From assembly GCA_965178125.1 (NCBI GenBank), contig OZ237735.1, positions 434,001 to 498,000 of the forward strand: DNA of 64,000 bases, in the 5' to 3' direction. A program made the position numbers and the translations under genes. Positions 1-64,000 of this stretch are shown here, in pieces. The stretch comes from Bilabrum cf. latius (taxonomy: Eukaryota). Numbering within the stretch: the stretch's first letter is position 1; every line of letters starts with the position of its first letter. A model generated the notes under the pieces. That model did no database searches, had not been told where the DNA came from, and saw only the letters and a program-made list of their open reading frames with translations.

Positions 1-1560
1 TGGAGCAGCAAGCTGAGGCGTACTGATTGATTTATTCATGCGCTCTCCCGATGCTGCATCTGTGCCGTGACCCGCCCCCGCCTTGGTCTCAGCAATCGGT
101 CTGCCACGGCTGTCCTTATTCGCAGTGGCATCCTTGCCATGGCTGCCTGTTGCAGATAATGCAATAGCTTGGCCTGTAGTATTTGTACCGCTTGCATTGC
201 TTACGCCGGGGTTTGCATCACGCCCCGGCGGGGTGGTGGGTGGCCCGCTCGATGCAATGCTAGACCGCTGACTCTGGATTTGCACCCGACTTGGGCCCTG
301 GGTCAAAGATTCACCCGAAGCAGAGCATGACTGAGCCATAGCATGGCGCGCTTGGCTCGGTTTACCAGGCTGCGTGCTCTCAATCCTGGCCTGCTCCAGC
401 TGCTGCAGCATGCCTTGGCTCAGCATCGCGTGCCCAGGCAGGGCGGCCTGCTCGGAGGACAAGGCACCGGCTCCACTCCACCAGTCTGCATCGTCTTCTT
501 CTGCCAGTTTTTTATGCTGCTTAGAGCCGTGCTAGCTGAAGTCATTCCGTTGGCGGGACGAACTCGGAAACCTGGCAGTGGCAGTGGCAGTGGCAGTGGC
601 ACGGGTGCTCGTGCTGGTCCCGGCGCTCGCTGGCCCCTCACTTGCAGGAGGCTATGCTGCTTGCATTATGCTTCCATTTCCATTGGTGATGGCAGCGCGA
701 CTGTCTTGACCTCGCTTCCACAGCCAAGACTTCAGCTCTGCAGACGTGGTTGAGTCGATGCTGCCTTGCCTGCTTCTGCTTCTGTGGCTGCCTTGGGACT
801 CGAGCACCGAGTCGGAGTCCGTGTCCACGAGAGACACCACGTCGTCATCAGCACCTGCGGTGGCTGGATTGTCCCGAACACCGAGCGCAGTGCTAGCTTC
901 TACGCCCAAGGGCACTATTGTGTTGGTTTGCGGGGTGCTTTTTGACTGCTGTGCTGGTTTGTCTACGACTGTAGCGTTTCGATCCGAAGTGGGCCGCCCG
1001 GATTCGGTGAGATCGTCGGGCTTGACGGCCTCTGTCGGCTGCTCTGTCAGCATTCGATACAGCGCATCACACTGTGGCAGAGTCAGTGGCTCTGGTTCTG
1101 TTATACCTTCCCAGTCGTCTTGCTCCCCTCGAATGATTCGAGTGCTTCTGTCATGTCCCGTTCCACTCCCAACGAGCTCGAAACAGAAGCGAGCGATAGC
1201 GGCGTTATCCATTGTGCATACGTTCCACAACCCCGCAACAAACTCCAAGTAGTCAAGTTCACCGCTGCCGTCCTTATCGAAAAGGGCAAACAGGCGCTCC
1301 ACGAACCTAGTGCGCTACAGCGAGAAGTATTCTGTCGTCTCCGCAAGCGACAGGCTACCACTCCAATCAGCGTCTGCTTCCAGAAATGTGGCGAACATCT
1401 CCCAACTACGATTTTCATCCAGATTAAGTCCGTCGAGAAACTTGCGTTTTCTCGGAAATATGCGATCATGGAAGTACTCAAGTGGTGGAAGTCCCTCCTT
1501 ATATATCTTTGATATTTCGAGCGCCCTGCTGCTGTTTTGCTGCGACAATACGCAGCCCAT
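1..1560 (-). CDS. EF-hand Ca-binding protein (calcineurin-B-like N-terminus, long low-complexity tail); 3' end outside window
   Basis: Starts MGCVLS (possible myristoylation/palmitoylation). EF loops DADWSGSLSLAE and DKDGSGELDYLE. ORFs 1315-1560 and 652-1302 join in frame through TAG at 1315 and 652. The frame has no TGA/TAA down to base 1. Confidence 0.75.
575..600. repeat. (GCAGTG)n coding microsatellite (Ala-Thr repeat on - strand)
   Basis: Tandem hexamer visible inside the EF-hand gene. Confidence 0.7.
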
Positions 1561-1880
1561 ACGGAAGTCAGTTTCAATTAAGCTATCGGATCTCCATTTG
1601 CTCCCGGGTTGATATGCGTGGGCTCGGATGAAATCTTGCGCTCAACTCCTAGTTTTGTAAGGTTGTGTTTTCGCCCCGCCGGGCCAAAATACGATTATTG
1701 TCCCAACAGCAACTACTTGAGTGCACGACCATAGTACGTCGTTCATCTACTTGCAAGCAATACTGTCTCAAGTTTATTTGTCTAATTCTTTGTAAATTTG
1801 CAAAATGGTGAGAAAAATTTGCAAGTACCGCCAAACATTGCCCCATTCCTATACCTACATGAGCAGGCGCGTGCCACGCG

Positions 1881-3188
1881 ATGTTGACTTTTCGTATCGA
1901 TGAAGTGGCATGTCCCTTTGCAACATCATTAATCCAACAGTGTCTATCCGTTAGAATTTACAAAACATATTCGCAGGACGTCCTCCAGATTCTTCTTGGG
2001 CTTATTATCGCGCTGCTGATGCTTGGGCTTGGCAGCACCACGCAGATCGAAGAGTTTAAACAGCAGGTGTACAACTGGCCAGCGCCGTTGATCGGATTCC
2101 TGTGTCAGGTAGTACTCATGCCTCTTCTCTCCTTCGCGTTTGTCGAGGCTTTCGGAATGTCGGATGCGATCTCGTTAAGTATCATTGCCATCGGTTCCAC
2201 GCCGGGCGGGTCAACTTCCAATCTCTTCACGAAGTGGTCGAAAGGTGACCTTCCGCTGTCCATTACAATGACTGTATGCAGCACAGTCCTCTCCTTTGGT
2301 ACTTTGCCCGGTCTGCTGGCCCTGTACGGGTCGCGCTACACTTCGGATGACCTACAGATTCCGTTCGGCACCGTGGCGCAGTCGCTGCTGCTGGTAGTCG
2401 TGCCGGTCTCGATCGGCATTGCCGTGCGCTACTACTCCGCCTACTGGGCCATTTGGTGCGAGAGGATCGGCACTGCCGCAGGCATCATCTTCATCGTCGC
2501 GGCGATGGTCTTCGGGTCGATCACAGAGCAGTCCATCTGGAACGCACCGGCCGGGTCGTACGTCATCGGAGTGCTGCTGCTCCTGACCGGTGCTTGCCTA
2601 GGTTATCTCCTCTCCTGGATATTCAAGTTCCCTAGGCGGCAAGCACGCACGATCGCGCTGGAAACGGGCATCCAGAATAGCGTGCTGACGATCGCGATCC
2701 TGACCCTCAGCTTCCCAGTGAAGGACGGCGCAGAAGAAGAGGCCAGCAGGGAGCTGCAGCAGGAAATCCTGCAGTTCCCACTGCTGTATTCGGTGTTCCT
2801 TATCTTCGACTCCCTGCTCCTCACCGGTATCTTCTACTTTGTGGCAGAGTGGGACCCGGAGGAGGAGAAGGCCGCAGCCAAGGCCTACGAGAAGGCGCAT
2901 CAGGAGGCCAGCGAGAGGGAGATCAACGGGGGAAAGACGAACGCGGAGATGGAGGAAGAAAAAGAGGCCAAAGAGCTAGCGGAAGGCGGTGCAGCTGGTG
3001 CGTCGGCCGACAAGGCGGACGACTTGGAGGAGGGCGGCGGAGAGAAGAAGCAGGGGCAAGCGAACGGGGGCGAGGGTGTCGGCGCTGCTTCAACCACGCC
3101 TAGCAAGAAGGACGAGGACACAGCGATCGCTAAGAGTAAGAGTGGCATCGCGCCCACCGGCTCTGACTAGGTGGTCGCTGAGGTGTGA
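1881..3188 (+). CDS. Bile acid:Na+ symporter family transporter (SLC10/BASS)
   Basis: Motifs LMLGLG, GFLCQVVLMPL, STPGGSTSNLFT..GDLPLSITMT, RTIALETGIQNS; multiple TM segments. TAG 3168-3170 read as Gln gives TGA stop at 3186-3188. Start uncertain (possible acceptor cgcag at about 1976). Confidence 0.9.
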
Positions 3189-3326: not shown

Positions 3327-6300
3327 TCAAACGCGCGGGGACCTGCCTCGGCCCCCGAATCCACGGCCCCGACTGGACCCTCTTCCACGGCTGCCTCCCC
3401 CACCTCGACCACGACCTCTGCCTCCGCCCCTGAATCCGCCACGCCCGCGACCCCTGCCACCTCCACGACCCCTGCCACCTCCACGACCCATTCCCCTGCC
3501 ACCTTCGCGCCTGTCGAAGCCACTGTGCCCGCCATCTCGTGACTAGGACCTGCCAAACCCGGGCGACGGGCGACCCCGATCACCATCCCGACCGCGACCC
3601 TAGAAACGCCCTCGACCCCGCTGCGAGCCGAAACCGCCGCGGCCCGAAGCTCCCTGTCGTCCTCGTCCTTCGCCATCACCATCGCCATCGCCAGTACCGT
3701 CAGCCCGGAGCTCCGCCTCTGCCCGCCGCCGCTTCGCCTTGCGCCTGGCGACGTCGTCGAAGCGCCCTGCGTACTCCTTGGTCTCCTGCCAGCGCTCCTC
3801 CCTGCTGCCCTCCATGACCTTCTTGATCCTCCCCTCGTCTAGCATGTTCTCCCAGTCGTCCTGCTCCACGTCCCTGCCTTTCTGCTCGTCCTGCAGCCCC
3901 AAGGGATCCTCCTCCTCGTCCCGCGCAGCACGGGCCCGCTTCTACCCTATCGCGCTCGGTGTGCCGATGCCGGCAGCACCACTCCCGCTGCCACTCCCGC
4001 TCTCCTCGTCATCCATGTCCCACCCACCGGCATCGCCTGCGGCCCAGTACCCACTCATGAAGCTGGCTGTCGCCTGCTTGCCCGCCAGAGGTCCTCCGTG
4101 CAGCACACTCCTCACCCTGACTTCCTGATCGCCAGGTGCGCCACCACCGCCAGCCACAGTGTCCGCCCACCGGACCCGTTGTCCACCGTACGTCTCCACC
4201 ATCTCGCCATTGTCGCTGTCTGCGTCGCTGCCGCCATCGCCGCCAATTCCCTTGCCTCGCTTGTGAACGATCACCTCTTCTGCTCTGCCGGCCAGCGCGC
4301 GGCGCAAGGCGGATTTCGCGAGAGCTGACTTGGGCCGCTCGTCCGTCGTCTGTCTGTCTGCCATGGTGGCTCTCGCTGAGCTAGACGCCTTCAATGAGCT
4401 CTTGCCGCTTGACTTTGCCGCACTTGAGGTCACGGACGGCTACGTCAAAGCGCTCTTGGACGGGAAGTTACCCTTGTTCAGCTGCTCTCTTGCCGACGAT
4501 TTGCTGCTGCCCGAGGGCTGGCTCGGCCCAGCAGATCGCCCAAACGAAGTCCAGTCGACTGCCTCGTCTTTGCTTGACTCCGCAGCATCATCCCAAAGAG
4601 TCGAGCTTGCTTCGGTTGTGCCAGCCTCGTTCTGCTCCTCATCTGGCGCCGGGAACTCGAACTCCAGGGGCAGGTCGGCGATCTCGCGGTGCCGCCTCAG
4701 CGTCTCGGCCCGCTCTGCCTCCCGCTGCTTCATTGCTAGCTGCCGCCGAATGATGCGCAGCTCCTCAACCATGGTGGCGTACGGGCCACACCCCGTGCTT
4801 GAGTTGCTGGCAACGCTTCCCTTCGTTTGCTCTACCTCCTCATCATCGTCATCATCATCACCGCTGCTATCATCTGCCGAGTCACCATCATCCCAGAAAC
4901 CATCTGGAACGCGGTGGTCCTGCGGCAGCTCACCGACAGGCACCTCGCGACCATCGCGGAGGATCTTCAAACCTCTCTTGGACGACGACTTGCAACCAGC
5001 CTTTGCTGTCAGAAGCACGCCCGCGAACCTCAAGTGCCTGGGGAGGTGTACGACGGTCCAGCCTCGCAGGGTCTCTGGGACATCAGGCTCATCATCCTCG
5101 TCCTCCTCGCCTGTGCTTGCGGCACCCGGGACAGTCCTGACCCTGGTGCCTTGCTCGCCGCTCTCGTCCGTGATGGCCCCCGACTTGACGGCGTCCACAA
5201 ACTGCTGGAGGAAACGGTCAGAGTCGCTTCCATGCAGTTGCTCAACCGCTCGCTGGGCCCGTTCAGCCTCAGAGGGCTCTTCCTCATCGTTGTCGTCACT
5301 GTCAGACGGGTACTCGTCTGCATGGCCCGCAGCAATTTCATCGATCTCTTCGCCGTCGTCTGAATCGGAAACATCGGGATCACCCATGGCCGCATCGTAT
5401 TCGCCAGCGGCCTCCCCGTCAGCGTCACTATCAGCATCACTACCACTCCCGTCCTCTGCCATCCAGTTGAGCATTCCCATTACTTCCAAGAAGACGATTT
5501 CTTCCCTGGTGGCCCGGCGGACCCTGCTCCAGCCCCGAGGCCTCCAGGTGCGATTCGGACCGTTCGCGCCACTGCTAGGCGGAGGCCTCCACAGGGCGGC
5601 GGGTCCCGCGCCCAAGGCCTAATCCAGCCGGCAGTCTTCCTCGGCAATCTGCTTGACCCTCTCGTACAGCTCCTTGTGCGAAGCTGGCCTGCCCAATGTG
5701 TCCAGCCGGCTGCTGATCGCTGTCCACAATTCCTGAATGTACAGGTGAGCGCGGTCGCTGGCACAGGTGGAGTCGCTCAGAGCCACGGTCGGCACCACAC
5801 CTGACTTCCATGTCCAGTCAGAGACCGGCATCTGCGAGCCGGTGGCTGCTTCATCTGTTGGCGCTGCAATTCCGCTAATGGTTGGCTTGATGCGAGGCCC
5901 GGCCGTCGAGTCATTCGCATCATCGCCTTCCTGGTCCTAGAGACCTGCCCACACCTCTCCGCCGAAGCCTTGCAATTCCTCAGCTACACCGCTGTCACTG
6001 CTGGCCGATCTTGCTGCCCTCATCGGACTCGCGCCGATGCCGTCCTCCTCGCGGATGGTCGCCAGCACCGCTCGCGCGTTCATGCTGGAATCTGCCGTCA
6101 CGTTTGACCCTCCAGACGAGGCGCCGAGGGTCCCGTCATCGGACGTCCAAGACGCCGCACGAGGCCTTCTCACAGCCGCGAGCAATTCGGGATTGTCGTC
6201 GCCGGACGGACTCACCGCACCAGCCAAGGCTAGGATCCCGGGAACCTCCCCGCCGTCAGCTGCCTGAGGCGCGAGGCGCTGCTTTGCAGGTGTGGAAGCA

Positions 6301-8100
6301 GTAGGGGACGGATCCAGTCGCAGAGCTTCGCTGATGGCATCTGGGCGCGCGCTCGAGGCTGCAACTACCGCAGGCGAAACAGGCACGCCTCCTGCAGATG
6401 CGTGGACATGGACTGGTCCAGGGTACTTGACTCCCGACTTCTGCGGGATCCTGGAGTAGAAGAGCATGTAGGCCCTCTGAGACATCACTTGCTTGATATC
6501 CACGCTGGCCACGTGGGAGTCGTCGCAGAGGTACCACCCGCCCGCCGGCCCGCGCACGTAGCTGAAGTAGTGGCCCGAGTGCGCCGAGGACCCCGAGTGC
6601 ACAAGCACGCCATGCAGCAAATACCTGCTGGGCTGCCCCTCGGCGAGAGATTCCTCGCTGAGAGCAGGGCTGATGTCCAATTCCTCAGGGAAACCTATGT
6701 GGGTGCTAATCTTGCGTCCACCGCCGCCTCCGCCGAAGCCCATACCCCCAAGCATCATCTCGAGCATGCCCATGCCCATGCCCCCCATGCCTCCGCGCCT
6801 GCCCTTCTTCTTCCCCCCCCCTTGCTTCGTCATTCCGCCATGGCCTTGCCCGTACCCACCTCCCCCGAAGCGCCCCTAGCTACGCACGTGACCACCCCCA
6901 CCACCACCACCGCCGTGCCCTCCATGTCTGAACCGATGCCGGCCGCTCCCACCGCCGCCTCCACCCCCGAAACCCCTTCGTCCCTTGCCGCCGTACCCCC
7001 CGAGCAGACCACCAAAGGAGAAGCGCTTCAGCTGAATGGTAAGAACATTTGGCGGGTACCGCATCGTCAGCTGCTTGCGCGCCCTTGACTTCTTACCGCA
7101 CTTATCACACTTGTACAGGTTGTCAGCATCCAGCACCTCTGGAGTGGCAAATCTGCGAAGGGCATCGTCCACCGACCGAACGCCCTTGCTCAGCTCAACG
7201 GATAGGTCCAGGAAGGAATCGTAGGTGTTCGAATTGTACCCGCACGCTGCGCACCGGATCTGGCTGCGGAGGTACCCCCCAAACATGGCGTGCACGGGGG
7301 TGGTCTCCGCCTGCCTCTTCTTGGCAGACTCCTCCACCCCGGCCTGCCGCAGCTGGCACTTGTGGATGCCCTCCAGTAGGCACCGAAGGAACTCGTGGCT
7401 ATCCTCCTGGCGACCCAGCCTGAACTGCTTGCCAATGACCCGCAAGCGGCCAGTGATGCGGCGGGGCTCGATGGCTGACCGGCTGGCCAGCATCGTGGCA
7501 ATGGTGCGCGACAGGTGGTGCTCCAAATCCACCTGCTCGGCATCGCCCATCGCCCTCTGCAGGCAGTACTACGCCAAAAGCGGCGTGTGCGCGAGGCATT
7601 GCAGAGTGGCGTTCAGAAAACATGTGTTGCCCAGATTGATGAGGCCGGACGCAACGCGACGCGGCTCAGTCCATCGCAAGTGACCCTACACAAAATCAAA
7701 ATCCCTGAAAATCCACTTCTTCACTGGAACAATATCAAGTTGCTGCGGGAGATACAGCAAAGCGGCAGTCCTAATTATAGTAGCGAGCGAAGCAACCAGG
7801 GCGAAAGGGTGTGCACTCCTAGAACTACGACGCTGCTCACCTCGTCCTGCCTGCTACCTTTCGCACCCGCGGACTGCTTATCGCTCTGTTTCGCTGCAAC
7901 GAATCCCTAACTGCGTACTAGCGATACAGATGTTCTCAGTGGTATTCGTCAGACAGGACGATTTGCAAATGAGTAAGTTGTCCGATTTTGCCTCACGATC
8001 CCTGGTCTTCCTCTCGTCCGCCAGACGCAGCTTCCAACATCGCCAGCCGCATGCGCTCTTTTCGTCTTTCTTTCTTGCTTGATTTTTTCGTCTTCCCCAT
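3327..8100 (-). CDS. USP36: Ubiquitin-specific protease, USP36/USP42-like, about 1529 aa; exons 7997-8100, 7841-7910, 3327-7742
   Basis: Cys box [26 protein letters not shown], His box [15 protein letters not shown]-terminal [15 protein letters not shown] (USP36-type) and RGG tail. Six ORF fragments join in one frame via TAG; ends TGA. Introns 7911-7996 and 7743-7840. Confidence 0.85.
3330..3650 (-). repeat. RGG/RG low-complexity coding repeat at the USP C-terminus
   Basis: Repeated CCACGACC/CCGCC units translating to [15 protein letters not shown]. Confidence 0.8.
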
Positions 8101-8212: not shown

Positions 8213-11200
8213 ATGGCAAGCCCACCCCGTAGTCGGCGAAAGACAACGTTCTCTAGTTTATCAGTCTTTTATCGTGGTCTTAGTGAGTTGAGAAGTGGTA
8301 CATAGGCTGATAAACCAGGGCTCGCTTGCAGTATCTTGCGCCCCCAGCAATTGAGAGTTTGACCGTGCTCGCAGGCAGCGATGACATCGAAGCTTCGATA
8401 TCGGAGAGGGCAGAGTCAATTCTATACTTCTATCCGAGAACGTACTCCCTCGGTCGAATGATTCAGCACGTCAACCTATGCGCTGGCGTCGCAGACTTCA
8501 TGAGGTATGTCACACGTTTAGGATCTGAGACACTGGCACCACAATTGCTAAAGCAAGTGCTGTACAATTATTCTCTATATTTCATTGCTGCCGCAGCTCG
8601 TTTGACCGTCCATCGCTCCCACCACGAGTTCCAGCAACTGTCGACAAGGACGACCGAGCCACTGCGCAGACGCTGCTCCACCGTCCTACTGAGATCTCGA
8701 CGTGTTTGCACCAGCGCCGCTTTATCATGAGAGAAGTCGAGCCTAATTTGTGGATGGCATTAGTTCTTACGCACGGAGGTTCGAGATCTCGAGGCCATTC
8801 GGCCCCCTTCCCATCGGACCTTGTTAGCGAGGTCTCGCTGCAGAGCATGCTGCAGCAGTGGTGGGACGCCTTCCGGGTCATGCACGGGCCAGCTCTTTCC
8901 ATACTTAGCCGGGGTGAGTCGCAGTCGCAGGGGGAGGAGGGACCCGCCCACGCCCGCCTCGGCTCCCTGTGGAAGCGCCGCAGGAAGCTCAGGGTCAAGG
9001 CCAATCGGCACCTGCGCATGGCCCTCTCCTCCCCCGCCTTCGACATGGACGAAGACACCAGCAGCAGGGGAAGCGGTGGCAACCAGACGCTCAGCTGCAT
9101 CAGAGCCGCCCTGCAGCTGCAGTCACCCGGCAAGGGCGAGATCTCTGCCCACACCTCGCGATCGCCGTCCCCAGGGTCTCAATCGCAAGGGGACAGCCCC
9201 GCATCAGGCACTGCCACCCAGCACCGAGCGTAGCAGCACCTTGCACAGCTAGGTGCATGCCTATAGGAGCTAGATGAGGTCAGCTAGAAGGCAATGGCGG
9301 AATACAGGAGGGCCCCGCAGTGCAAGCTCAGGGTCTTGCTGCGATCCGTCCTGGACCTGGCGCTCTACCACAGCGACACTGGCAGGATCACTCCGATCAC
9401 GGCACTGGATATGCCCATTGTTGCCGATGCCACGCCGTTTTCGGCGCGTTGTGTAGATCAAATGTGTCGTGCCATCCGCAGCTGTACTGGTGCTGGAGGC
9501 ATCAATCGAATGGCTGTGTACTTTGACGGCAAGGTCGTGAGGGCACCGTCTGACTCCCCTGCTGAGACAGCCACGATCGGTCGCCTGCTGCGGTGGCATT
9601 CAGCCCAGGCTATAACCCCACTTGCTCCGCCCGAAGGCCGCTTGCCGGCATGGCTTTGCCGAACCAGGGATACCAACTAGGGCGGATCCGGGGCTGGGAC
9701 AAGTCATTTGCCCAGCGAGGGCAAGCATACGGACAAGGAACTGGATGCCGTAGCACCATGCGCGGCTCGTGTCGATGAACGAGCCAGCAGTGCGGCAGAC
9801 CTTGCCGTAGAGTCGTCATGGCGACGCATAGAGGCCCGTGGAATCCCTGTCGAGTTCTCGTATCGCGCTCTAGGAGGGGATGCTGCCGCTCTGCCTGACG
9901 ACCTGTCACCTGGCCTGCATGCCGAGCCGTCTTTCACGACGTCTTTCTTCCGATCCACGTCTCAGTACCATTTTGAGGGGCTATTCTTGTCCGATCCAGG
10001 CGTCCCTGATGCGCTTGAGGCATGGGCTCTTGCGCAGCAGTGGGGGGAACCCAGCGTGTCGCGCATGAGACCGCGGGGCGCTGCTGCCTCTCGGTCGGTA
10101 GCCAGCGAATCAGGATCTGTGCGATGGGAAAGCCACATGAGACACCGCTCTGAGGGTGCAGACTCTTCTGCCTCTGCAGGGGTGTCCAGCGGCGCGATCG
10201 TGGATGCTGTGAGGTCCTCGGTCGAGGGCAAGTCGATAGTATCGCCACGGTCGCGAACGGGTAGCACCTCAAGCACCCCGGAGATGGCGGAGCGGAAACT
10301 CTTCATCAATAGTCACAAGCCAGCTGCCGGTAGTGTTCCGCCGCTAGCGGCTGGGTTCCTTGCTTTGGGTAGGTTGCTGCGGTCGGTGCCACCCGGCTAG
10401 CGACACGCCGCGTGCAGAGCCATGTCAATCGGTGCGTGGTGCGTGTCTCACGACTGGCCTGGCATCGCATCCATGCGCGACGACCCGCAGCAACCACTTC
10501 GTGACGGCATTTCTCCGCTCTCTTCGTGGCTGGGCGAGTTGCTTGGCCACAGCCGTCAGCGAAAAGGCAACGAGCGATGGGGCCTATTCCTGCCTGCCGT
10601 GCACCTGCAGCATGCAGCTCCTATGCCTTCGTCTGACGAGGACAAAGCGACGCAAAATAAAGCGCCCTAGACTGCTGCTGAGACGGCTTTATCCGGTCTA
10701 TCTAGCTTCGCGGATCTTTGCAAGCGGTGTCGGCGGCCTTCGCATCGCCTCGGCCTCCTGCAGGCTGGCCGAATGACCCTGGCATTCGCCGTAGAGTACG
10801 AGCAAGGCGGCGTAGAGCATGCCGCTCTGGCGGTTATGCGAGCAATAGAAGCAGTTACATCAGGTGACGCATACAGGCCGTTTTCCGCCGCCTACGATGC
10901 TCTCGCGAGAGCCCAGGAGCTGGGCCGCATGTCACTGCAGCGAGACAGTGGCGTGTTGGCCAAGAGCGACGGGACTGAGCTGCGGCTGCTCGGCCTGCTC
11001 GGTGCAGGGCCGTGCCCGGCCTTGGCACAGCGAATGGCACAGCTACCGAAACCCATCGCTCGAAAAGTGACGGCCTACGACCTGGCAGTGCAAGGGCAGG
11101 CCTTCCTCTCGTGGCAGCGCTCCGATGTGCTCATGTCGCAGCTATCGCCACAGGCACTAGCTGTCCTGAACAGGTGCGTTGACACTATGCATCATGGTGC

Positions 11201-11711
11201 GGATATGCACAATGCTAGCTTGACGAACGCGATATGGGGGCATTATCATGAGATTGCTGCTGTGTTTGCCAGCCTAGAGGGAGTACCGCCAACGGCCGTC
11301 CTGGAGATGGTGGCGAATCGAAGACCATCGATGGCGAGGCAGGCGAAGTGCACGACCAACTTTGCGTCAGTGGAGACCATTGCTAACTATTCGAGCGTGC
11401 GAGAATTCAAACTGGCCCAAGCCGATGCTTCCCGCTCGGCAAGACTCACGCAAGCTGGCTCCAGAAAGCAGCTGTCTGCTCGAAGCAGCACCCGGTCAAA
11501 CTCTGGGCTCATTAGCCTGTCTTCGTCTCGCGCACCTGCGGTACACTTGACCAGTGGGGGACGGGTCGAAGCATCCCACTCGGTGCTTGCATCAGTGCAG
11601 AGCAGCACTGCTGGTGCTGTTGTCTTGCTTGAGGCCAGGCGGCGCACGGCGGAAGGTCTCGCAGGTCGTGCAGAAGCAATGTGCTAGTAGATATCGCCTG
11701 AGGAACATTGA
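8213..11711 (+). CDS. CCZ1/HPS4/INTU-family longin-domain protein (Rab GEF subunit-like); introns 8283-8374, 8505-8596
   Basis: ESILYFYP...QHVNLCAGVADFM and REVEPNLWMALVL resemble the first longin domain of CCZ1/HPS4. ORFs at 8706, 9294, 9708, 10422 and 10773 share a frame and are separated only by TAG. TGA at 11709-11711. Confidence 0.65.
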
Positions 11712-11781: not shown

Positions 11782-13365
11782 TCAAGATTGCGCCTGCCGG
11801 CTGCACTCCAGCACAACCCGGTCGAGGAACCTTGCAACGTCGTCATGAGCATCTGCACCTCGCGCAGATCCTCTCAATGCTCGAGAAGCGGACGATGAAG
11901 CAGCCCCGCCTTCAGCGACTGGGCTCCCCGCCGGCATGTGGCAGCCAGCGAGCTGGTCCAGCATCGCCTTGGCCGCCTTCCGAATCATGCCATCCTCACT
12001 TGAACCGCGTGCCGGCCTGCTACCGAATTCCCTGCAGTCTCCAGGCATAAGAAGCGCTAGTATCGCCCCTAGTATTCCCTTCAATAGGGACAGGTGCTGG
12101 AAGGAATACCTCCCACTCAGCTGGTCGGGCTGCCGAAGCATGCTCGCCACGCTCTTGGACAGCAGAGCAGGGATATTTGATGCGACAACACCATGGTATA
12201 TCCGGTACCTGTCCGAATGGCGCTCTTGCTTGGTCGAACTACCCTCCCCGGCAGCCTCCCCGAAGTTCATTGCCCAGTGCTCAAGTTTAATGCAAACCTC
12301 TACGCACCTCGCACACTCCAACAAGGTGCTCTCGCGAGCGATCCGAACGCCAGGCTCGGCCAACGCATACCCTTCCGAAGTGTCTGGTTCTAGTGGCGAA
12401 GAGGTGGACATTCGATAGGGGCGCGACCCAACACCTTGCTGCCTTGACGCTGGCAGGGAGTGGAACGACACTGGAGATATATCGGTAGACACGGTCCCCT
12501 CTGCCGTTGAACGAAGTCCTCCAGGGAGTGAACTCGACTCTCCTATAGTTGATGACGGAGACATCAGCTTCGTTGGTGTCCTGTATGCGCTTGAAACAGC
12601 CTGAGAACCACTGTGGTCCGCCACGTCCGGTCCATTGCCCGCTCCCGCTGCCACCGGCCCAGCTTCAGGACTGAATATGTCCACCTCGAGATCGCCAGTA
12701 GAATTACGAGCTGTTCTTCTTACCTACATTTGTGTCTGTAGGAGAAGTGGGGTCTGCACTGCAGCGCTGCTGGGCAGAGCCCCAGAGAGCACTCGATGGG
12801 ACACGATCGAAGCAGCTCGAAGCGTGTCAGCCAGCATTCCCTCAGGTTCTAGTCCCCGTACTTCCCATGACGTTTCGATCGTGCTAAACTCAATACGACG
12901 CGGTGACACCGAGTCCAATGATTCGATAATCGCTTCTTCCAGTGTCTCAACGAGCACTGAACTTCTCCGCCTGAAAGCGAAGCAGAACATGCGCCGCGCA
13001 CGCAGGCTACAGTTCTCTTGCATGCTGTCTGCTAGTCTGTTTACTGCCTAGATTGTTGCCTTGGATGATCGTTGCAGAAGAACGGCGAGAAGTTTGGCGC
13101 TATTTCGACCTCTGCCTGCCTCAGCGAGAGAAAACACAGACTTCCGACTGAGGCCAGCTATCGCTCTGGCTAAGTTCTCAGCGTCCTGCAGCAATAAAGC
13201 TTCTTGTACCTGTGCGATAGACATATCCACGGACGCTCGTTTGCTTAGCATGCCTACTTGAGTTGTGCTGATGAGCCGAGCAAGCTGAGGCTTCGACATG
13301 CTCGCTTCAACCAGGTGGTCGCAACCATTGCACTCAAAGCTGGCGGTCGCAAGCTCTTCAAACAT
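11782..13365 (-). CDS. Hypothetical helical protein (no family recognised)
   Basis: ORFs 13048-13407, 12724-13023 and 11782-12684 are in one frame joined by TAG; ends TGA. Start ATG at 13365 or 13299. Confidence 0.6.
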
Positions 13366-13418
13366 TGGTCCCAGATACAGTCGTATCGTTGCCAGTATGG
13401 TGTTCACCTATTAAGCAG

Positions 13419-48433: not shown

Positions 48434-48468
48434 TGTTGCTTGCTTCTATGAGGCCAGCATGGCTTGCC

Positions 48469-48517
48469 GGCGGGAATACCACATTCAGGTTTCATCACGC
48501 TACATTCACATTTCAAA
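48469..48517. promoter_or_regulatory. E2F-like GGCGGGAA plus CHR-like TTCAAA in the eIF3k/RPA1 divergent promoter
   Basis: Motifs at 48469-48476 and 48512-48517, upstream of the RPA1 ATG. Both are short and could be chance. Confidence 0.3.
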
Positions 48518-48555
48518 AAAGTTGCACACCTCCTTCGTGGTCGCATTGTGCTGTC

Positions 48556-53800: not shown

Positions 53801-56800
53801 TCTCCATGGCCTCCCGGAGCTTCTCGTCGCCCCTTGCCTTCTCCTTTACAACGGCTTCCGCCACGGCCTGCTGAATGCTTTGCTCTCTCGTTGACTGGAA
53901 CTCTTCCTTTGCCTTCGTGAGCGCCTCGCGCACGGCCTTAGACATTCTCTCCTGCACTTCATGCTCCAAAATATGCGACGAAGGACCCGCTGCCTCCTGC
54001 AGCCGCATTTCGAGCTTGCTAGCTCGCTCCAGCGCGTCACCCAGCTGCTTGGTCAGCTTGCTGTTGCCTTCCAACTCTGCCTCCAGGCGATCCTCCGTCA
54101 ATGCGAGGGTAGAGCGCACAGCATCAGCTGCCTGCTCCAGCTCTTCGATCCTACGCTCGGCTTCCTCCGCTCTACCCCTGAGCCGCTTCACCTCCACGCT
54201 GTAGGCCTCGCTAGCTACCTCGTGGGCCGCCTTCAGGCGAGCTACCTCACTGTTGTGTGTGTCGCTCGCGGATCGCAGAGCTTCCGCGTCCTGCTTCGCG
54301 AAGGCGAGCTCCTCCAATGTGCGGGTAATATCTCCATCCCTCTGCCTCTCTGCAGCCTCGTGTGCGTCTCTCTGCTTCTCTAGCTGCGTGCGAAGGTCGT
54401 CTGCCTCTTCCCGCAGCTCAGCGTTGGAAGCCTGTTGATGCTCCAGCTAGCCCTGCGCCTCGCTGGCAAGCGCTTGTGCAGCTTCCACCTGCCCTACCCA
54501 CTCTTGCTTCTCCATCTCCCGCTTGCTCTCGGACTGCTTCAACTCCTCCTCGAGCCTCGCCAATTTTGTCCGGGAGGCATGCAAGTCCTGCTGAAGCGAC
54601 TCCATCTCAACGGCTGCTTTGGCAGATGCGTCTCCTCTGTCCGACGCCAATGATGGACTGCCAACATCTGCAGATCCAGACTTAACTCCCTTTCCTTGCA
54701 ATACAAGGTACTTGTTTCGCGTTGTTTTCTCGCGGTCGATCGCGCTGTCGAGGTCACGCGTCGTCTTCTTGAGCTTGTCCTCGAGCAGCCCGGTGCGTTC
54801 CTCGGCCGCCTTGGCCCTCCTCACCGCCTCCCTGGCTCTCTTGGCCTCGACCTGCACCCGTTCGCTGATCCTGCGGATGCGGGCCTCCGCCCGCTCCTCT
54901 GCGGCGCGTATGCGGCCGTCCATTTCAGCAGCTCTGGCGCTGAGCTTGGCCTTGCGCACCTCTTCCAGCCTCTCCAAGCGGTCGTTCGCGAGTGCCAGCG
55001 CGTCCCTGCCCCTCTTCTCCGCGTGCTTGGCGGAGGCTTTTCGCCGCTCTCGCTCACGCTTCAGCAGCTCGGCAACTCTGAGGGAGAAGACAGACTCGGC
55101 CTGCTGGAGCGCCTTGTCCACGGCTTCCTGGGCGCGGCGATTCGCCTCGCTCGCAGACACCTGGTGAGACCCACCGACAGCCAACGGGGCAGAAGCACCT
55201 GATCTCCCGGCAGAGGAATGCAGCGATGCCCCAGAGGCGCGCCCCTGCTGCTCGTGGTGTGCCCGCACCTGTCTCTATAGCCTGGAGGAGCGAGCCGAGC
55301 GGTCTCCTACGCTGCCTCTCTGCGACGCAGCGTCCGAGACCCCAATCGCCCGCTTCGCCTCAGCTAGCACGGACTGAGCGATTCGTGCCGCGACCGCTTC
55401 CTACTCGCCGCTCTCGCTGTCCGTGCCGTCGGTGCTGCGCTCCGCTGCAGAGCTCGGGCTCGTGGGCTGCGGCACACCAGCCCCCAATGGGTATGACCTG
55501 CCGCCAGGGCTGCTTCCTCCCATGGTTCCTGCGCTACCTCTGCCGGCATGATTTGTCTAATGGCCAGTCTACGGGCTACCCGCCGCCTCTGCACCGCTGC
55601 GCTTAGTGGGCGTCACCACTAGAGCGATGCTGCCATCCTCCCTCCTCCGCACCTTGCGCCGACTCTGGGGGCGAATCGTGCCAGCCCCTGTCCCTGTCGC
55701 CGCGGAGGACTCAGACGATCGGCGTGACCGGGGCAACTCGCCGAGGCCTAGGCTAGGGTGCTGCCTGCCACCGCTCGGCCTGGACTTTGCGCGGGCAGCA
55801 GGAGCCGCTGAGAGGTTGGGTGGCGCGGTGACGGGGGGCGGTGGCAGTGGCGAACCTTCCCTAGAGCGCTGGTGATGGTGCTAGACTGACGGCGGTGGCA
55901 TCGCTCTGCTGCTGGACTCGGCCAATTCGTCCTCGCCAGCTCCGGGCATGTCACTCCCAGAGGGCTCACTGATGTCTGAGTCAGCCCCGCTGGCAGTTGA
56001 TGAGGAAGAGGCCCGGCCACCCTCGACTCTGCCGGTCTAGCCATGCCTCTAGCCGTCGTCCTGGCTAGAGCTGGTGCCGGCACTTGCAGGCAGTGTCGGC
56101 GGGGGCTGCAATGCGCCCGGCAGCGGCCTAACTCGCAGCATTGGCATGCGCTGGCTGGGCTCGCGTGGCAGTCCAGTGCCCACGCCCCCGGCAGAGGGCG
56201 CTTGGGGTACTGCACCTGCATGCGCTGCACCCGCCCCTGCCACGCTGCCTTGAGCCGTGGGTCCGCGAGCAGACACCTTTGGCGGCTGCTCCGGGATGGC
56301 ATCCGATGCCACGGTCTCGGTGTCGCCGTCAGTGCTCGGATCGATGCCGGCGGCGGCGGAAGGCTGCTGCCCATGGGCATGTTTGCCCATCGTCGGGCCG
56401 TCGCCGCTGTCGTGCGATTGAGACGCGACGGAGGTTGCCTCAGGGAGATCGGCTCCGTCCGCCTCTGTCGTGCTGACACCGCTTGCACTCCACCCGTCGG
56501 GGTCTTCGCTCCATTCCGACGAGCCTACAGATGCTGGCTGGTGCTGCATACCTGTCACGCCAGCCACAGTCGCAGTTGCCGGTGCCACTGAGCGACCGGT
56601 CGAACTCATAGCAATTGTGTCCCTGAGATTCGGCGGCGCACGAGATGGCGGTGACATGCGCTACTTGGGCATCTATCTATCATCGGGATCCTCTCGGGAG
56701 TCTTCGGAGCTTGAATCCGGAGGACCTGCGTGATGCAGCAGTCTTGGCGGAGCCGCAAGATCACAACCGTGAGATGCACAATACAGACAGGCTTCACACA

Positions 56801-57117
56801 CTTTAATTGAGCGGACTTACTGGAGCTTGTTCCGTTTCGCATTGCATCCACAGAGGCTGACTTGATCTGCAAGAACTAGTTTGACTCTCGATTTCGCCAC
56901 GACACAAAATGGCAGATAGAAGGGGAACCAAGTTGCCATCACGAAGCACACCACCTTCATACAGATGTACAAGGATGCTCACCTTATCTTTTAGCCGGAC
57001 GTTTTCGGATTTAGCCTGTAGCAGGTGATGGCGAAGCTCACGCAAATCTAGCCGTCCGTCGGATTCGAGTGACCCCGGTGACAGCTCCGATCCTTGGCCA
57101 CCGCTGCTCTAGCTCAT
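50805..57117 (-). CDS. Large protein, about 2033 aa: low-complexity region, coiled coil, SAP-like motif, WW domain, C-terminal auxilin-type J domain; introns 56867-56982, 56726-56820
   Basis: WLQARTAEGQVYYYHRVSRAVRWEKP (WW), IKKAYLKAVRVVHPDK (J, HPD intact), MSVAQLKRLLDRAGI..CLEKAEL. Single TAG-joined frame; TGA at 50805. Confidence 0.75.
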
Positions 57118-57306: not shown

Positions 57307-58693
57307 ATGGCAGCCGTTGCGTCCTCTAAGGGTGCAGAGGTAGATGCTACAAGTGATGGCATCAGGCCATACTTCCGGGCCAAGCTTGATGAAATGGAAA
57401 TTAAGATTCGCCAGCGAACCTAGAATCTGCGCCGTCTGGAGGCGCAGCGGAACGAGCTAAACTCGAAAGGTGAGATTCAACGGGGCAATAGCGCATGAAA
57501 TACATGTTGTGCGCAATAACTGGTCCTTGAATTGTCACACAAGAGCATCATTCTGGCGCCACGACAGAGGTCGCTCCATTCAACCAGTCCTTTCAAACGC
57601 CCCGTGTTCGCGCACTGATTACCGTATTGTCACCACAGTTAGGGATATTCGGGATGAATTATCGATGTTGTATCAGCATGGATCGTCCGTAGGCGAGGTT
57701 GTGAAGCCTATGGGTAAGGACAAGGTGCTGGTGAAGATGGGAGGCGAGGGCAAGTATGTTGTTGGGCTAGACAAGGAGATTAAAATCTCTCAGTGCACAC
57801 CAGGAGCCCGGGTTGCGCTTCGATCAGACAGTATGGAGCTTCACAAGATCTTGCCAACCAAGGTGGACCCGCTGGTGAGCTTGATGCGAGTGGAGAATGT
57901 GCCGGACGCGACGTACGACATGGTAGGCGGGCTTGACAAGCAGATCTAGGAGATGAAAGAGGTTATTGAGCTGCCAATCAAGCACCCAGAACTGTTTGAG
58001 GCTCTTGGTGTGGCTCAGCCGAAGGGGATTCTCATGCATGGCCCCCCCGGTACAGGGAAGACCTTGCTTGCTCGCGCCGTGGCACACCACACCGAGTGCA
58101 CGTTCATCCGCGTGAGCGGCTCTGAGCTGGTGCAAAAGTACATCGGGGAAGGCTCCCGCATGGTGCGAGAGCTGTTCGTGATGGCACGGGAGCACTCGCC
58201 ATCCATCATCTTCATGGATGAGGTGGACTCGATCGGGGGCAAGCGAGCGGAAGGCAGCAAGGGCGGCGACAGCGAGGTGCAGCGCACGATGCTGGAGCTT
58301 CTGAACCAGCTAGACGGCTTCGAGCCCAAGCAGAACATCAAGGTAATCATGGCCACGAACAGAATCGATATCCTGGATCCCGCGCTGCTGCGACCCGGCC
58401 GCATCGACCGGAAGGTTGAGTTCCCGCACCCGAACGAGGCTAGCAGGCTTCACATCCTGACAATCCATTCCAGGAAAATGAATCTCATGCGAGGCATCAA
58501 CCTGAAGAAGATCGCGGACAAGATGACGGGCGCATCGGGAGCTGAGTGCAAGGCAGTGTGCACGGAGGCGGGCATGTACGCCCTGCGAGAGCGGCGCATT
58601 CATGTCACTCAGGAGGACTTTGAGATGTCCGTCGGAAAGGTCATGCGCCAGGACGCGGAGAAGGACGTTTCGTCGATCAAGCTTTTCAAGTGA
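57307..58693 (+). CDS. PSMC5: 26S proteasome regulatory ATPase RPT6; intron 57470-57638
   Basis: T(TAG)[62 protein letters not shown]-terminal KLFK. Two in-frame TAG; TGA stop. Confidence 0.97.
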
Positions 58694-58788
58694 TCGGGCG
58701 TGCTATCGCTGTTGCTCGGCTGTGGCCGTGTGGATTGAGTGGTGAAATACGCGAGATTCTAATCCGATGGATACGAACTTTCAATCTT

Positions 58789-61700
58789 TCACGACCTTGC
58801 CTTCTTTCTAGACCGGCCTTCCCTGTCCCTTCGCTCGTCCACGTTGCGCTTTTTCTTGCGCCTGCCCGCCTCCTGTTTAGAGCGCTTGCCGTGTGCCGCC
58901 GCAACGGGATCAAGCATACCTTGCAGGGATTTCCTCGAGCGCTTCTCCGCTCGGGCATCGCTCCTCCTCTTGGCCGCCGCCTCCACCAGTCGCCCCATTT
59001 CTCCCGCTGGCAGGACGCCCTCCGCCTGCTTGAGTGCCTCGCTGGCCTGCACCTTGAGGCTGGCGACCAGGCTGTCTCGCCCGCCGCACTGCACCTCCTC
59101 CTGTCCCATGGCATTGGCTTCGTCCAGCTGGGCCCCTCCGATCCCCCGAGCCTCCAGCATCGAAGCGGTGGGAGGCGCACCGGGTGCCTCCCCTCCAATC
59201 CCCATGGTCTTGGCGAATGCCTCTGCCGCAATCGGAGCAAACGACCGGAAGTGAGCACCCGTAGCCGACGCCAGCCCCACGAAGAAATCCAATAGGCAGC
59301 TGCGCACAGGCAGAGACGCCTTGGACAAGAGCTTGACGACCCGTCTGCACGCAGACTCAGAGACAAGCCCATCGATTGGGACTCTCAGCTTGCCCTCTGT
59401 AGCAGCGGCAGCAGCCTTGCTGCTCGACGCCCGGATCGAAGCGTGGGCCTGTTCGAACTGCAGCACCACGAGCGCAAGCACGACCTAAAGCACCGCATCC
59501 GCGTGCTGCCGCGTGGTTCCGAGCCAGTACAGCTGCGAGAGGAGCGCCTGCACCAGCGTCTCTGCACCTTCGCCTTCCATCAGAGAGGACAGCAGGGCGC
59601 CCTATGCATAGCCGCCTGCAGGAACAGGCTTACCCGAGTCCTTGAGAGATGCCAGTGTTTCTGGCACGCCTGCTGCCACCAGCAAAGAGGCCGACAGGCG
59701 AGTGGACACCTGCCGAACCCACACATGGGGATACCGCAGCAGTTCGCTGAGCGCCCTGATCGCTGGTATCACCTAGCTATCGCTATCTGTGTCTTCTGCC
59801 GCAGCCGCGCCGGATGCGGCGGAGGCCTTTGCTGAAGATTGCTTTGAGCCGGTGGTTGTTCCAGGGCAGGACAGCCGCGGCAGCAGTGCAGCAAATCGGA
59901 CAGGGCTGGCTCGCGCCAGTTTCTCCATGGCAACGCACGCATAGTACAGCGGCTGCCAGTCGATGGTCTCTAGACCGGCGCTTACCGACTCGCTCTTGGC
60001 CGCTTGCTCGACTTTTGCTGACCATGCTGCTGCGGGCTGCGACGACCCAACTCCAACCTCCCCCTCCGAAGCCCCCGCCCCGCTCGCTGGTCCTTCGCTG
60101 TCCATCTCCCGCTGCGCAACTTTGATGGCTTCCACCTCTTCGATCAGGTCTACGTCAATGTCCGCAGGCACTTCGACTCCAGGCCGAGCTCGAATGAAGC
60201 CATCGTCATCCATCGCCTCCATCAATAGTGCCTTCATTCGCGCTCTCTCAGATTGATGTGAGGCGCTGCCGCTCTGTGAAGCCGAGGTCGACGATGTGCT
60301 GAACCGAGGCTCCTCGTCGGGAGCATCAACATTTGCTTGACGGCCCGACTATGAGCTAACAAGAGCAGACAGCCTGTTGCTGGCACTCACAGAAGCAGAA
60401 AACTCGTCAGAGGATGGAACCACAGCTCCTGAACGACCCTTTAAACCATCCTACATCTACAACGAGGCCTTGATTGCGCGGTGCACCTCGGTCAACATGC
60501 TCTTCTCCACCTTGTCAGCGGCAGACTTCTCGTACACAGGCATCCGGGTGTCAATCAGAATTCCAGCGAGCTGAAAACCAAGCCTTCGATTCGGACTAGC
60601 TTGTTTTTGCTTGCACCATGCCGCCACCATCTTTCCGATCGCTTGCGCCCGGCGGTGAGGAACACGAGCCACTAGCCTGGACACCGCTAGCCCTGCTGCC
60701 GCCCGGCAGCTTTCCTCGGGGTCGTTCACGATCCTGGCAGCCAGAGGCAAGAACAGCAGTTCAGCGTGCTTCTCGAGCACAACCACGGGAAGCTAGTCCA
60801 CCGCAGCAGCAATCACATCCAACGCCGCCAACCGCCCGCCAGGCTTGTCGTACTCCAAGTTCCGAAGGAAGAAGCGCAAATGATCTGCCAACCTCTCCTC
60901 GGATAAAGGGAAGTGCATCAAGAAGGTCAGAAACACGTGAGCGGATTGCGCTCGGGCTCCTACCTTGGTAGATCTGATCATGAACTTTGCCACGCGGTCC
61001 ATGAGGTCGTAGACCTCGGGGGCAACCAGCCTGCGGTGCAGCACCGCTCGCAAGAGGGCAAAAGTAGAGTTTTGCCTCTCTGGCACTTCGAGATCGGCGT
61101 CAAGCACGAGCACGATCGCCTTAAGCTCGTCCTGGGAAATCTTGGCGCTGGGCAGGTAGCGCAGCATCGCTGTAACTGCCTTGACCGTCTGCTGAGACAC
61201 CTGGCCTCTCGCTCCAGTCGAAGCATCTACACCGCTGGACCCCGTGACGGGGCGCACAACCCTTGACATGTGCAGGAGCAGCGCCTGCTGAACCTATTTG
61301 CCGATGGACTGCAGCAGCTGGGGGGCCTTCTGCAGCATCATGGTGACGAGCCGCAGCCCTGCGGCCAATGCACGGTCCGACCTCAGTACGAGCAGAGCAC
61401 GCACTACGTATTTTCCAACCGCTTGGATGGCATCAGCACTAGTGTCCGGCTTCCATGAGGATTTGCCCTTTCGCGCACCTGACATCATGAGGGCCATGGA
61501 GAACCAGACGAGCACCTCCGCTGATTGACCATCCAGACTTGAGGCCCGTCCACCACGGATAGGCTGCCTGGCTCGATCAGCTGCAGTCTTCTTCTCTTTG
61601 GCCTTGATATATCTGCCGATGCCCGTCATGCGAGGTTCAGCCGCAATCTTGAAGGTGTCGGTCGGGCGGCTCGAGGGTCTCAGAATCGAAGCCACGTCGG

Positions 61701-64000
61701 CCACAACTGTGTTCCGACTCTGAGATGCGCCCCCCAGGGGGACAGCTGCCAACGAATCCGAAGGGTTCGCAGCACCGGCTCCGCTGGCGGCGCCTTGGGC
61801 AGCCCTCGACTGGATCTCGCGAATGAGCATGTACGGGTCACTTGCGCTCCAAAGAGGCTGCGAGTTCATCCGCTACAGCCTCCAGCGCAAGGTTGCTGAC
61901 TAGCCCTGTCTGCTTGCTGCGCTGTACAGGTCTCCAAACCGCACGGAGGCGATATCGCCTGAGTGGTCCACACCATCCCTGGCTGCAAGACCATCCACTG
62001 CCAGGTTGTCTCTCAGCAACCCGAGGCAAAACTGGTTCAGGCCGCTGGATGAAACGGATGGGTTGGCGGTGAGACCGCTGATGAGAGAGGAAAAAAGCTT
62101 CACCACCGCAGCCATCGTCTTAGTGTCTTGTGCACCGCCATCTGCAAGGCTAGCTAGCAGTGGGGCAGTCAGCTGGAATACGGCCGGATGCGGGAAGAAC
62201 GGCACACAGCTGGCGATAATCTCAAAGGTCAGGTAGCCCCTGCATGACCTGGATTCCATCATTGGGTACTTGGGAACGTAGCCGCACTCAGGGTCCTTGG
62301 CCATGGCCACCTTGCCCAGCACGTCCTCGACTACCACTTCGAGCAAGTCAGGCAGCGCTGCAAGCAGAGCAGAGTCTTCGTGATCAATTTCGTCAGCTGC
62401 ATCTGTGGAATCGCTGTCGCTATCACTGCCACCATCGCTGTCGCTGTCGTCTGTCATCTCACTTACGCTTGCGGACGGGGAAGCCTTCTACCTCAGGTCG
62501 CTCTTGAGAGCTGCCAGTACATCGTACACGACATGCCCCAGCACATGCACCATGTAGCCATCCCGCAAGGTGTGTCTCAGCGAACTTATCACAGAGGGTA
62601 GATACTGAGTCCCCACAGTCGTGGCTATGCGCACCATGGCTGATCGCGCCGAATTCCTGGCCTGCTGCACCCTGCTCTTCATCGCGAGGGCAACCTTGGT
62701 AAGCAAGCCCCAGAGCCACTTGCTCAGTACAGCCTTCGGCAGCAGCTTAACCAGCTTTGCGCAAGCTACGGCAACTTCAACTTTCACCATCCCATCGCGG
62801 TTCGACAGCAGCTTCTACAGAGTAGGCAGTACGTCTTCCTCAAGTGTTCGAAGCACCACCGTCGAATTTGGGGCAACCGCACCGCCTTGTACAGCTAGAG
62901 CAATCCTGTCCTTGGCATCGATTTCGAAGGGGGTTCCTGCGTACGCCTCTTCTGAAGCAACCGAAGTGGCAGCGCTATCAATCATGGGTACACTTGCATC
63001 CGCTGCGGCGACCTCAGACTTGGCCCCTGTCTGCGAACTGGAATCCGCGTTAAAGTGGAAGGCATCTAGAAGAGCACAGATCGCGCTCTCCAGCGCCGAG
63101 GACCCAGTTGCGACAAGGTTGCGAAGCAGCAGTTTGAGCAGCCAGCCGTACTGCTCCCAAGGCAGGCTCTGGCCGATCGCAAAGAAGAGGCTGCACAGTG
63201 CCTACTTTCTTGTCTTGGCAGCACCCCTTGGTGCTCCTGCAGAACCGCCCCGCTGAAGCAGTTGTACTGCAACGGGCACTACGAAGTGCCTGACCACCCT
63301 GGCTACTCGCAATTGCTCATACTTTCCATTCCTCAGCTTTTCGAGAAGAATAGCAAGCTATTCCATGCTGGCACTGCTGGCCATCCCATTGATGCTGCAA
63401 CACTCGACAAGAAGGTGCTGGTTCCCTGGACCAGTCTCCACCGCGCTTTCTGCCTCTGCAGCAGACTGCGCAGCACCAAGCGAGTCTTCTTCATCGTCTG
63501 TGAGGTCCAGCACGGCGTCGTATAGCAAATCTCCAAGTCTGACCGTTACCCCTTGCATGCCAGAATCAGGCGGGTTGCCTTGTAGCAGCTCAAAGCCAGG
63601 GGGCAGCTCAGAGTCCAGCAGCACGACTGTAGTTCGCAGCGAGCTGGCAGCTGCAAAATATGAAGAGATGGCTGTTACTGCAGCCTAGGCTGCTTCCTTT
63701 AGCGAAGAAGCCGGCGCTACGTTCAGCACATGCCGCACGGCTGGAAGCACGCAAAAGCTCATAACACTGGCGCCATGCAGCACCCCTTTCCCGGACTCCA
63801 CCGGAAACGGAGGTTGAACACGATCGCAACCTCGCCTAATCGCGGCCGCGTCAGTCCTTCCCATGGCTTCGCAAAGCTGAGACAGGAGTGCTGCTGCTCG
63901 ACTGCGTAAAGCGAAATTCTCGTCTGCCAAGTAGTACGATGCCACAGCACTGACTGCCGCGAGGTCGACTGCCTCAGCTGGGGCCTTCGAAGACGGGCGA
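58789..64000 (-). CDS. UTP20: SSU processome HEAT-repeat protein UTP20, 3' part; 5' end outside window
   Basis: MKSRVQQARNSARSAM..TLRDGYMVHVLGHVV, EDVLGKVA..MESRSCRGY, FLMHFPL..HLRFFLRNLEY, FLPLAARIVND, basic C-terminal tail. Nine fragments in one frame; TGA at 58789. Confidence 0.85.

Follow-up and report, generated by a model that had tools for sequence, protein, structure and literature searches.

In-frame UAG as a probable glutamine codon in nuclear genes of a compact, GC-rich protist, probably a stramenopile

We analysed a 64-kb stretch of DNA (contig OZ237735.1, positions 434,001 to 498,000; hereafter the window, numbered 1 to 64,000) in which a first-pass annotation, made from the letters alone, had proposed that the codon UAG is read as glutamine. 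All genes of the window use UAG as an ordinary sense codon; UGA is the main terminator and UAA a rarely used stop. Comparison with homologous proteins indicates that UAG very probably encodes glutamine. There is also high, if slightly lower, confidence in the broader picture, in which the DNA comes from the nucleus of a protist with a compact, GC-rich genome and few introns, probably a stramenopile near the bicosoecid Cafeteria, and UAG has been reassigned from stop to glutamine. This would be a known code variant, apparently in a lineage without an earlier report, and not a categorically new code.

Translation of the window under the standard code yields 24 stop-to-stop open reading frames (ORFs) of at least 250 amino acids (aa), the longest of 693 aa. 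With TAG as a sense codon there are 48, of which the longest reaches 4949 aa and contains 52 TAG, followed by ORFs of 2003, 1736, 1516 and 1456 aa. The products are those of ordinary eukaryotic nuclear genes according to Pfam and homology searches, except for one gene that could not be assigned to any family. Across 16 gene frames comprising 19,185 codons we counted 138 in-frame TAG (0.72% of codons), and TAA and TGA did not occur internally at all; in the two remaining frames of the identical stretches (38,370 codons) there are 377 TAG, 133 TAA and 747 TGA. Once the models had been corrected by spliced contigs, TAG was present past the first ATG in 17 of 17 genes, in agreement with the first-pass claim that all 17 carry it in frame. 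The codons singled out there as examples are indeed in-frame TAGs: 45227-45229 and 48323-48325 on the reverse strand, and 57421, 48625, 46477 and 35553. Read as glutamine, UAG makes up about 15% of the glutamine codons.

The other two stop codons behave differently. Genes with a mapped 3′ end terminate at TGA in 14 of 15 cases and at TAA in one, the kinesin gene, which is the only gene of the window to end in TAA; the MutS homolog, with its unconfirmed exon structure, was left out of this count. The 785 CAR codons in the gene frames consist of 251 CAA (32%) and 534 CAG, and if TAA and TAG were used in the same ratio, approximately 65 in-frame TAA would be expected. The absence of any, where the CAA share predicts tens, means that within the window TAA has no appreciable use as a sense codon, and a code in which both UAA and UAG specify glutamine (table 6 type) is rejected for the window. 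The change is thus confined to UAG, as had been proposed, with UAA and UGA remaining as stops that are never found internally and that close the genes.

In three genes a TAG lies 5-9 codons before the terminal TGA: in the gene for the SBF-family transporter (3168, five codons before TGA and the only TAG of that gene, whose position near the C terminus had already been noticed), in the longin-like gene (a tandem TAG-TAG at 11685-11690, 6 codons before TGA) and in the gene for the WW-DnaJ protein (50834). Within the last 10 sense codons there are 3 TAG in 13 gene tails against 0.95 expected (Poisson P = 0.07), or 4 in 14 with the WW-DnaJ gene added by hand. These terminal TAGs could be relics of a time when TAG still ended these genes, translation now continuing to the next TGA, or they could reflect residual termination at UAG. 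The latter would make UAG a dual, context-dependent codon, glutamine inside genes and still a terminator near some 3′ ends. Ambiguous stop/sense codes of this kind have been reported for Condylostoma, Parduczia and karyorelict ciliates, and the three genes with a TAG so close to their ends, together with the excess over expectation, speak for such a code here. We nevertheless consider dual meaning unlikely. None of the genes depends on TAG for termination, each frame reaching TGA or TAA in 5-9 codons; conserved C termini such as that of RPT6 end at TGA; and the enrichment is weak and is equally explained by former TAG stops that are read through.

The identity of the amino acid was examined first at single sites, with TAG translated as X before alignment as a precaution against alignment bias. 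In the DNA-PKcs homolog, TAG 26247 aligns with Gln in 14 of 15 homologs (profile emission for Gln, 0.76) and TAG 35553 with Gln in 13 of 14 (0.49). In a global MAFFT alignment of this protein most TAG columns are gappy or unreliable, and only those of residues 1087 and 4189 are clean. The TAG at 45227 in the kinesin motor domain corresponds to Gln in three of the four aligned PDB kinesins and to Gly in the fourth, and the TAG at 48323 of eIF3k corresponds to Gln in 4/4 PDB alignments, all of them to near-identical eIF3k sequences. At RPT6 TAG 57947 all four members of the nearest clade, Cafeteria included, have Gln within a flanking motif that is identical or near-identical, and at GH20 TAG 45952 a 95%-identical relative has Gln. 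Where TAG falls on a strongly conserved column, that column is a Gln column in every case. The first-pass annotation had listed six TAGs at positions where homologs conserve Gln. Three of these, the kinesin, DNA-PKcs (35553) and eIF3k sites, bear this out, whereas two lie on variable columns: RPT6 57421, which is Leu in Cafeteria and Ile in two other sequences, and GH20 46477, which is occupied by Lys, Gln or Glu depending on the relative. For RPA1, a comparison of exon 1 with PDB returned no RPA match.

For a statistical assessment we built profile hidden Markov models from homologs of four genes, namely DNA-PKcs (15 homologs), UTP20 (15), RPT6 (116) and GH20 (148), the GH20 profile without two near-identical fragments. 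Query positions aligned at a posterior of at least 0.8 provided 19 TAG sites. In a calibrated pairwise test, the log-ratio e(Gln)/e(rival) summed over these sites was compared with family-stratified bootstraps of the organism's own Gln sites and of its own sites for the rival residue. Whichever of the 18 testable rivals was taken, the TAG value lay within the range of the Gln bootstraps (percentiles 0.46-0.93; Trp was not included), and in no case did any of 5000 bootstraps of the rival's sites attain it. With Lys as the rival, for example, Lys sites gave -14.4 ± 2.6 and the observed value was 0.0. A z-score version placed Gln at +0.7, Asn at -1.9, Lys at -2.2 and the rest at -2.7 or below (Ser -2.7, Glu -4.0, Leu -8.1); in its control, with 19 random sites per codon, 39 of 45 sense codons were recovered and the errors went to similar residues. 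The 19 TAG sites therefore behave like glutamine sites, and like those of no other residue, in the calibrated tests, as the proposal of a glutamine codon predicts.

Several observations weigh against glutamine. A plain Codetta-style likelihood ties Gln with Lys (0.504 versus 0.496), in a test that is underpowered and whose controls recovered 46 of 61 sense codons. A composition-normalised tally gives Gln P = 0.70, with a poor control (40 of 58), and prefers Asn if the two strongest Gln columns are left out. At individual sites, RPT6 57947 aligns with Lys in three PDB RPT6 alignments, two of them to human isoforms; at GH20 46477 the 95%-identical relative has Lys, a 46%-identical one Gln and a 41%-identical one Glu; and the UTP20 TAG at 60795 falls on a Lys-rich column (0.59) built from 15 homologs that are all or mostly fungal (the 8 that are named are fungi). 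DNA-PKcs residue 4023 and UTP20 residue 395 stand on Leu/Ile/Val columns, and the MutS TAG at 40164 aligns with a Thr of MSH3 in a variable, uninformative column. The crude tallies, raw and normalised, were not relied on because of their poor controls. The tally of codons against conserved columns that had been suggested as a check came out, for these four genes, in favour of Gln in its calibrated versions and weak in its crude ones. If UAG specified some other amino acid, of which Lys, Asn and Glu are the most plausible, this would account for the raw tie with Lys, for the Lys alignments in UTP20, in RPT6 (PDB) and in the close GH20 relative, and for the preference for Asn in the reduced tally. 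This reading is unlikely all the same: every alternative is rejected in the calibrated tests, the strongly conserved TAG columns are all Gln, and at RPT6 57947 Lys comes from distant sequences and Gln from the nearest relatives.

The TAG codons are also present in transcripts. We compared positions 44000-59999 of the window with contigs of four public sequencing runs from four studies. One run, from which the window itself may have come, spans the region in a single piece; the other three, from other studies and under other organism labels, show no base differences from it, the sole listed difference being a 1-base insertion at 59810 in one contig of run X8. Seven GT..AG introns are missing from contigs of runs X6 and X8, which are therefore derived from spliced transcripts; this absence is the sole basis for recognising them as such, and no listed run is recorded as RNA. 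These contigs cover TAG sites in the genes for GH20, RPA1, WW-DnaJ, RPT6 and UTP20, and keep TAG without any difference at 45877, 45952, 46477, 50026, 50834, 52916, 57421, 57947 and 59487-59775. One transcript contig spans all three GH20 TAGs and one spliced X8 contig both RPT6 TAGs, each with no differences, and an X6 contig of 11.4 kb matches UTP20 58838-59999, again with no differences. UAG is thus retained in mRNA, a check that had been named together with the glutamine proposal, and editing is clearly not how these genes become readable; the comparison was made on assembled contigs, which drop rare variants, so that low-level editing could go unseen. That TAG is not translated as sense at all, the genes being pseudogenes, the codons sequencing or assembly errors at CAG, or the transcripts edited back to CAG, is the default under the standard code but has found no support and can be dismissed: the frames are interrupted by TAG alone and never by TAA or TGA, all 17 genes including RPT6, RPA1, eIF3k and UTP20 are affected, contigs of four runs from four studies agree base for base apart from the insertion at 59810, and TAG persists in spliced transcript contigs.

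If UAG is read as glutamine, decoding would, by analogy with other lineages in which UAG or both UAR codons have become glutamine, probably involve a tRNA-Gln(CUA), one anticodon base away from tRNA-Gln(CUG), together with an eRF1 that would have lost or weakened its recognition of UAG and kept that of UAA and UGA. ARAGORN found no tRNA gene in the window, and eRF1 is not encoded within the window.

A relative of the organism appears to use the same code. An exhaustive protein search with the GH20 sequence retrieved two fragments from a relative, P0172 (83% identical) and P0154 (95% identical), both recorded in Logan on a 39,308-bp contig, probably one and the same. P0172 ends at the residue just before TAG 45877, and P0154 starts five residues later. 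This split is the pattern that a standard-code gene caller leaves at an in-frame stop, and the sister taxon therefore probably shares the in-frame stop at 45877 and hence the code. A scan of metagenome contigs with DNA-PKcs matched 39 pattern stretches, none of which was confirmed as a relative, and an exact 40-mer of the window had no match in the public genome contig collection.

The named best matches of RPT6 are mostly stramenopiles. In phylogenetic trees RPT6 of the window forms a clade of five with Cafeteria roenbergensis and three environmental proteins (FastTree support 0.976; IQ-TREE Shimodaira–Hasegawa-like approximate likelihood ratio test, 96), with oomycetes and ochrophytes nearby. 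A stramenopile near the bicosoecids is the likely source of the window, and the GC-rich, intron-poor genomes of Cafeteria would fit. Against this placement it must be held that it comes from one conserved protein and from taxa that were best database matches only; for DNA-PKcs the named sequence that matches best is from a haptophyte (33% identity). Neither a ciliate nor a fornicate is a good fit to the gene structure and to the position of RPT6. The first-pass impression that the DNA does not look like that of a ciliate agrees with GT..AG introns of 93-169 nucleotides (nt), genes of up to 15 kb, a contig of at least 83 kb in one run and the grouping of RPT6 with Cafeteria, and its suggestion of an independent case agrees with an RPT6 lineage that is separate from the published lineages with UAG alone as glutamine.

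Near-identical sequence occurs in runs that carry four organism labels in four studies, and 'protist' and 'algae' metagenomes contain small shares of it. This distribution would suit an organism carried along with other cultures, although small shares prove nothing. Anyone working with those data sets should reckon with a co-occurring eukaryote whose code differs.

Our literature search, which was incomplete and included part of a 2024 review of stramenopiles, found no nuclear code change for stramenopiles, bicosoecids or Bigyra; an earlier report is possible. We tentatively put forward, at somewhat less than even chances, that this is the first nuclear code change in Stramenopiles, a fairly recent step from UAG stop to glutamine next to Cafeteria, in a lineage of small bacterivorous flagellates and shared with at least one sister taxon at about 95% identity. 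If so, the TAGs shortly before TGA in three genes would be former terminators that are read through, and the lineage would be a young system, compact in genome and possibly open to culture, in which to study the capture of a stop codon. Annotation of this genome under the standard code cuts nearly every gene, and P0154 and P0172 look like such pieces.

The window has a GC content of 54-65%, about 58% overall, and is about 89% coding. In the modelled part gene packing is extremely tight, divergent starts and convergent stops lying approximately 15-190 bp apart, with close borders at 45400/45526, 48433/48448, 50697/50807, 57117/57307 and 58693/58789. The seven introns, recognised over 44000-59999 by their absence from the X6 and X8 contigs, are 93-169 nt long and all GT..AG; six start with GTGAG and one with GTAAG, and all end in CAG. 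Joining the exons in silico gives open frames in all four intron-containing genes, with TAG as the only in-frame stop codon and TGA at the end.

The first gene, on the reverse strand at 1..1641, encodes an EF-hand protein (Pfam EF-hand_1) with 3 TAG (1317, 654 and 534), its 3′ end lying outside the window. It is followed by the SBF-family (sodium/bile acid symporter) transporter on the forward strand (1881..3188; Pfam SBF, E = 4.9e-31; single TAG) and, on the reverse strand, by a ubiquitin-specific protease with a UCH domain and a long low-complexity tail (3327..7550; Pfam UCH, E = 7.3e-56; 7 TAG past the first ATG; TGA stop). A large longin-like protein of the CCZ1/HPS4 type is encoded on the forward strand (8727..11711; 8 TAG; TGA stop), the match being weak and below the curated cut-off (Pfam Intu_longin_1, E = 4.7e-4). 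The protein without a Pfam family lies on the reverse strand (11782..13365; 2 TAG past the first ATG; TGA stop), a protein with a C-terminal HIT-like domain on the forward strand (13419..16352; Pfam DcpS_C, E = 2.2e-5; 8 TAG; TGA stop) and an ankyrin and BTB/POZ protein on the reverse strand (16432..19173; Pfam BTB, E = 1.3e-20; 5 TAG; TGA stop). The last exon or exons of an RMI1-like gene occupy 19733..22090 on the forward strand (Pfam RMI1_N_C, E = 2.8e-10, at ORF residues 29-79; 6 TAG in the open frame; TGA stop). The RMI1_N match (region 19733-20275) precedes the first ATG of the frame, and the start of the gene is therefore probably in an upstream exon outside the model.

The DNA-PKcs homolog on the forward strand (23091..37838; 4915 aa from the first ATG), whose homologs carry the DNA-PKcs Pfam families, contains 52 TAG, ends in TGA and shows no intron. 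Downstream on the same strand is the MutS homolog (38037..40976; Pfam MutS_III and MutS_IV; at least 7 TAG), which consists of at least three frame segments (38037-39959, 39969-40262 and 40290-40976); the segment with the P-loop (nucleotide-binding) matches the ATPase region of MSH3. The shifts of frame would imply two short introns, or frame changes. The kinesin gene follows on the reverse strand (41111..45400; Pfam Kinesin, E = 5e-92; TAA stop) with 6 TAG, one of them (45227-45229) in the motor domain, and the GH20 beta-hexosaminidase gene on the forward strand (45526..47130; Pfam Glyco_hydro_20, E = 2.6e-58; TAG at 45877, 45952 and 46477; TGA stop).

The gene for eIF3k (233 aa) is on the reverse strand (47641..48433; PDB eIF3k match; TAG 48323-48325; TGA stop), with an intron at 48122-48214 that is skipped in X6 and X8 contigs. 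RPA1 (RPA70, 654 aa) is encoded on the forward strand (48448..50697; Pfam Rep_fac-A_C and REPA_OB_2; TAG at 48595, 48625 and 50026; TGA stop), interrupted by three GT..AG introns skipped in X6 contigs (48628-48721, 48778-48874 and 49028-49121). The WW-DnaJ coiled-coil protein (2033 aa), on the reverse strand at 50807..57117, has weak Pfam matches to WW and DnaJ, both below the curated cut-offs, introns at 56726-56820 and 56867-56982, 13 TAG and a TGA stop. The 26S proteasome ATPase RPT6 (405 aa) is on the forward strand (57307..58693; PDB RPT6, E = 4e-178; intron 57470-57638; TAG at 57421 and 57947; TGA stop). UTP20, on the reverse strand at 58789..63999 (Pfam UTP20, E = 7.7e-40, and homologs), contains 15 TAG and ends in TGA, its 5′ end lying outside the window.

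Between the GH20 and eIF3k genes, the 51 bases at 47319-47369 read as a peptide resembling a C2H2 zinc-finger linker. Contig depth there is very high in all four runs, up to 908, with joints that go back 51. The segment is zinc-finger-like, has many similar sequences elsewhere and is not an RNA gene. More than a gene in its own right, it looks like an isolated fragment that resembles abundant zinc-finger arrays at other places, in the same genome or in other organisms. An Rfam scan of the window gave no matches, and neither rRNA nor tRNA is present within it.

The codon table found here matches NCBI translation table 15, the 'Blepharisma' nuclear code (UAG as Gln; UAA and UGA as stops): in the window, too, genes are closed by TAA or TGA, and TAG is a sense codon for which Gln is the best reading. 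Table 15 was defined for ciliates, whereas the window has long genes, spliceosomal introns, a large GC-rich contig and an RPT6 that groups with that of a stramenopile.

Uncoupling of UAG from UAA is rarer than nuclear code changes in general, which are themselves rare, the cases given in the relevant passages of PMC5304391 and PMC11687900 being Iotanema, a rhizarian, Scotinosphaera and a few ciliates. According to sections of the same sources, the fornicate Iotanema spirale (Metamonada) reads UAG alone as glutamine (Panek et al. 2017, PMC5304391; also PMC11687900). It resembles the organism of the window in being a eukaryote outside the ciliates and in having UAG, without UAA, as Gln; it belongs to a different supergroup, whereas RPT6 of the window groups with Cafeteria. 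Excerpts of McGowan et al. (2024, PMC11687900) attribute the same change to Protocruzia tuzeti and two phyllopharyngean ciliate lineages, and state that UAG alone has become glutamine independently several times. These ciliates share the reassignment with the window but are an unrelated lineage, and a further independent case in another supergroup would add to the evidence for a repeatedly accessible route.

Codes in which both UAR codons specify glutamine are, in the portions of PMC5304391 and PMC11687900 that treat them, those of many ciliates, Hexamita, Streblomastix, ulvophycean green algae and Amoeboaphelidium protococcarum. They resemble the code of the window in turning a stop into glutamine, probably through a mutated tRNA-Gln, and differ in that UAA is glutamine as well, whereas the window has no in-frame TAA and one gene that ends in it. 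Passages of PMC11687900 also report UAG alone as Leu in the rhizarian exLh and as Ser in Scotinosphaera, and UAG as Glu with UAA as Lys in one ciliate. In all three UAG and UAA are uncoupled, as they are in the window, but the residues concerned, Leu, Ser and Glu, are rejected here.

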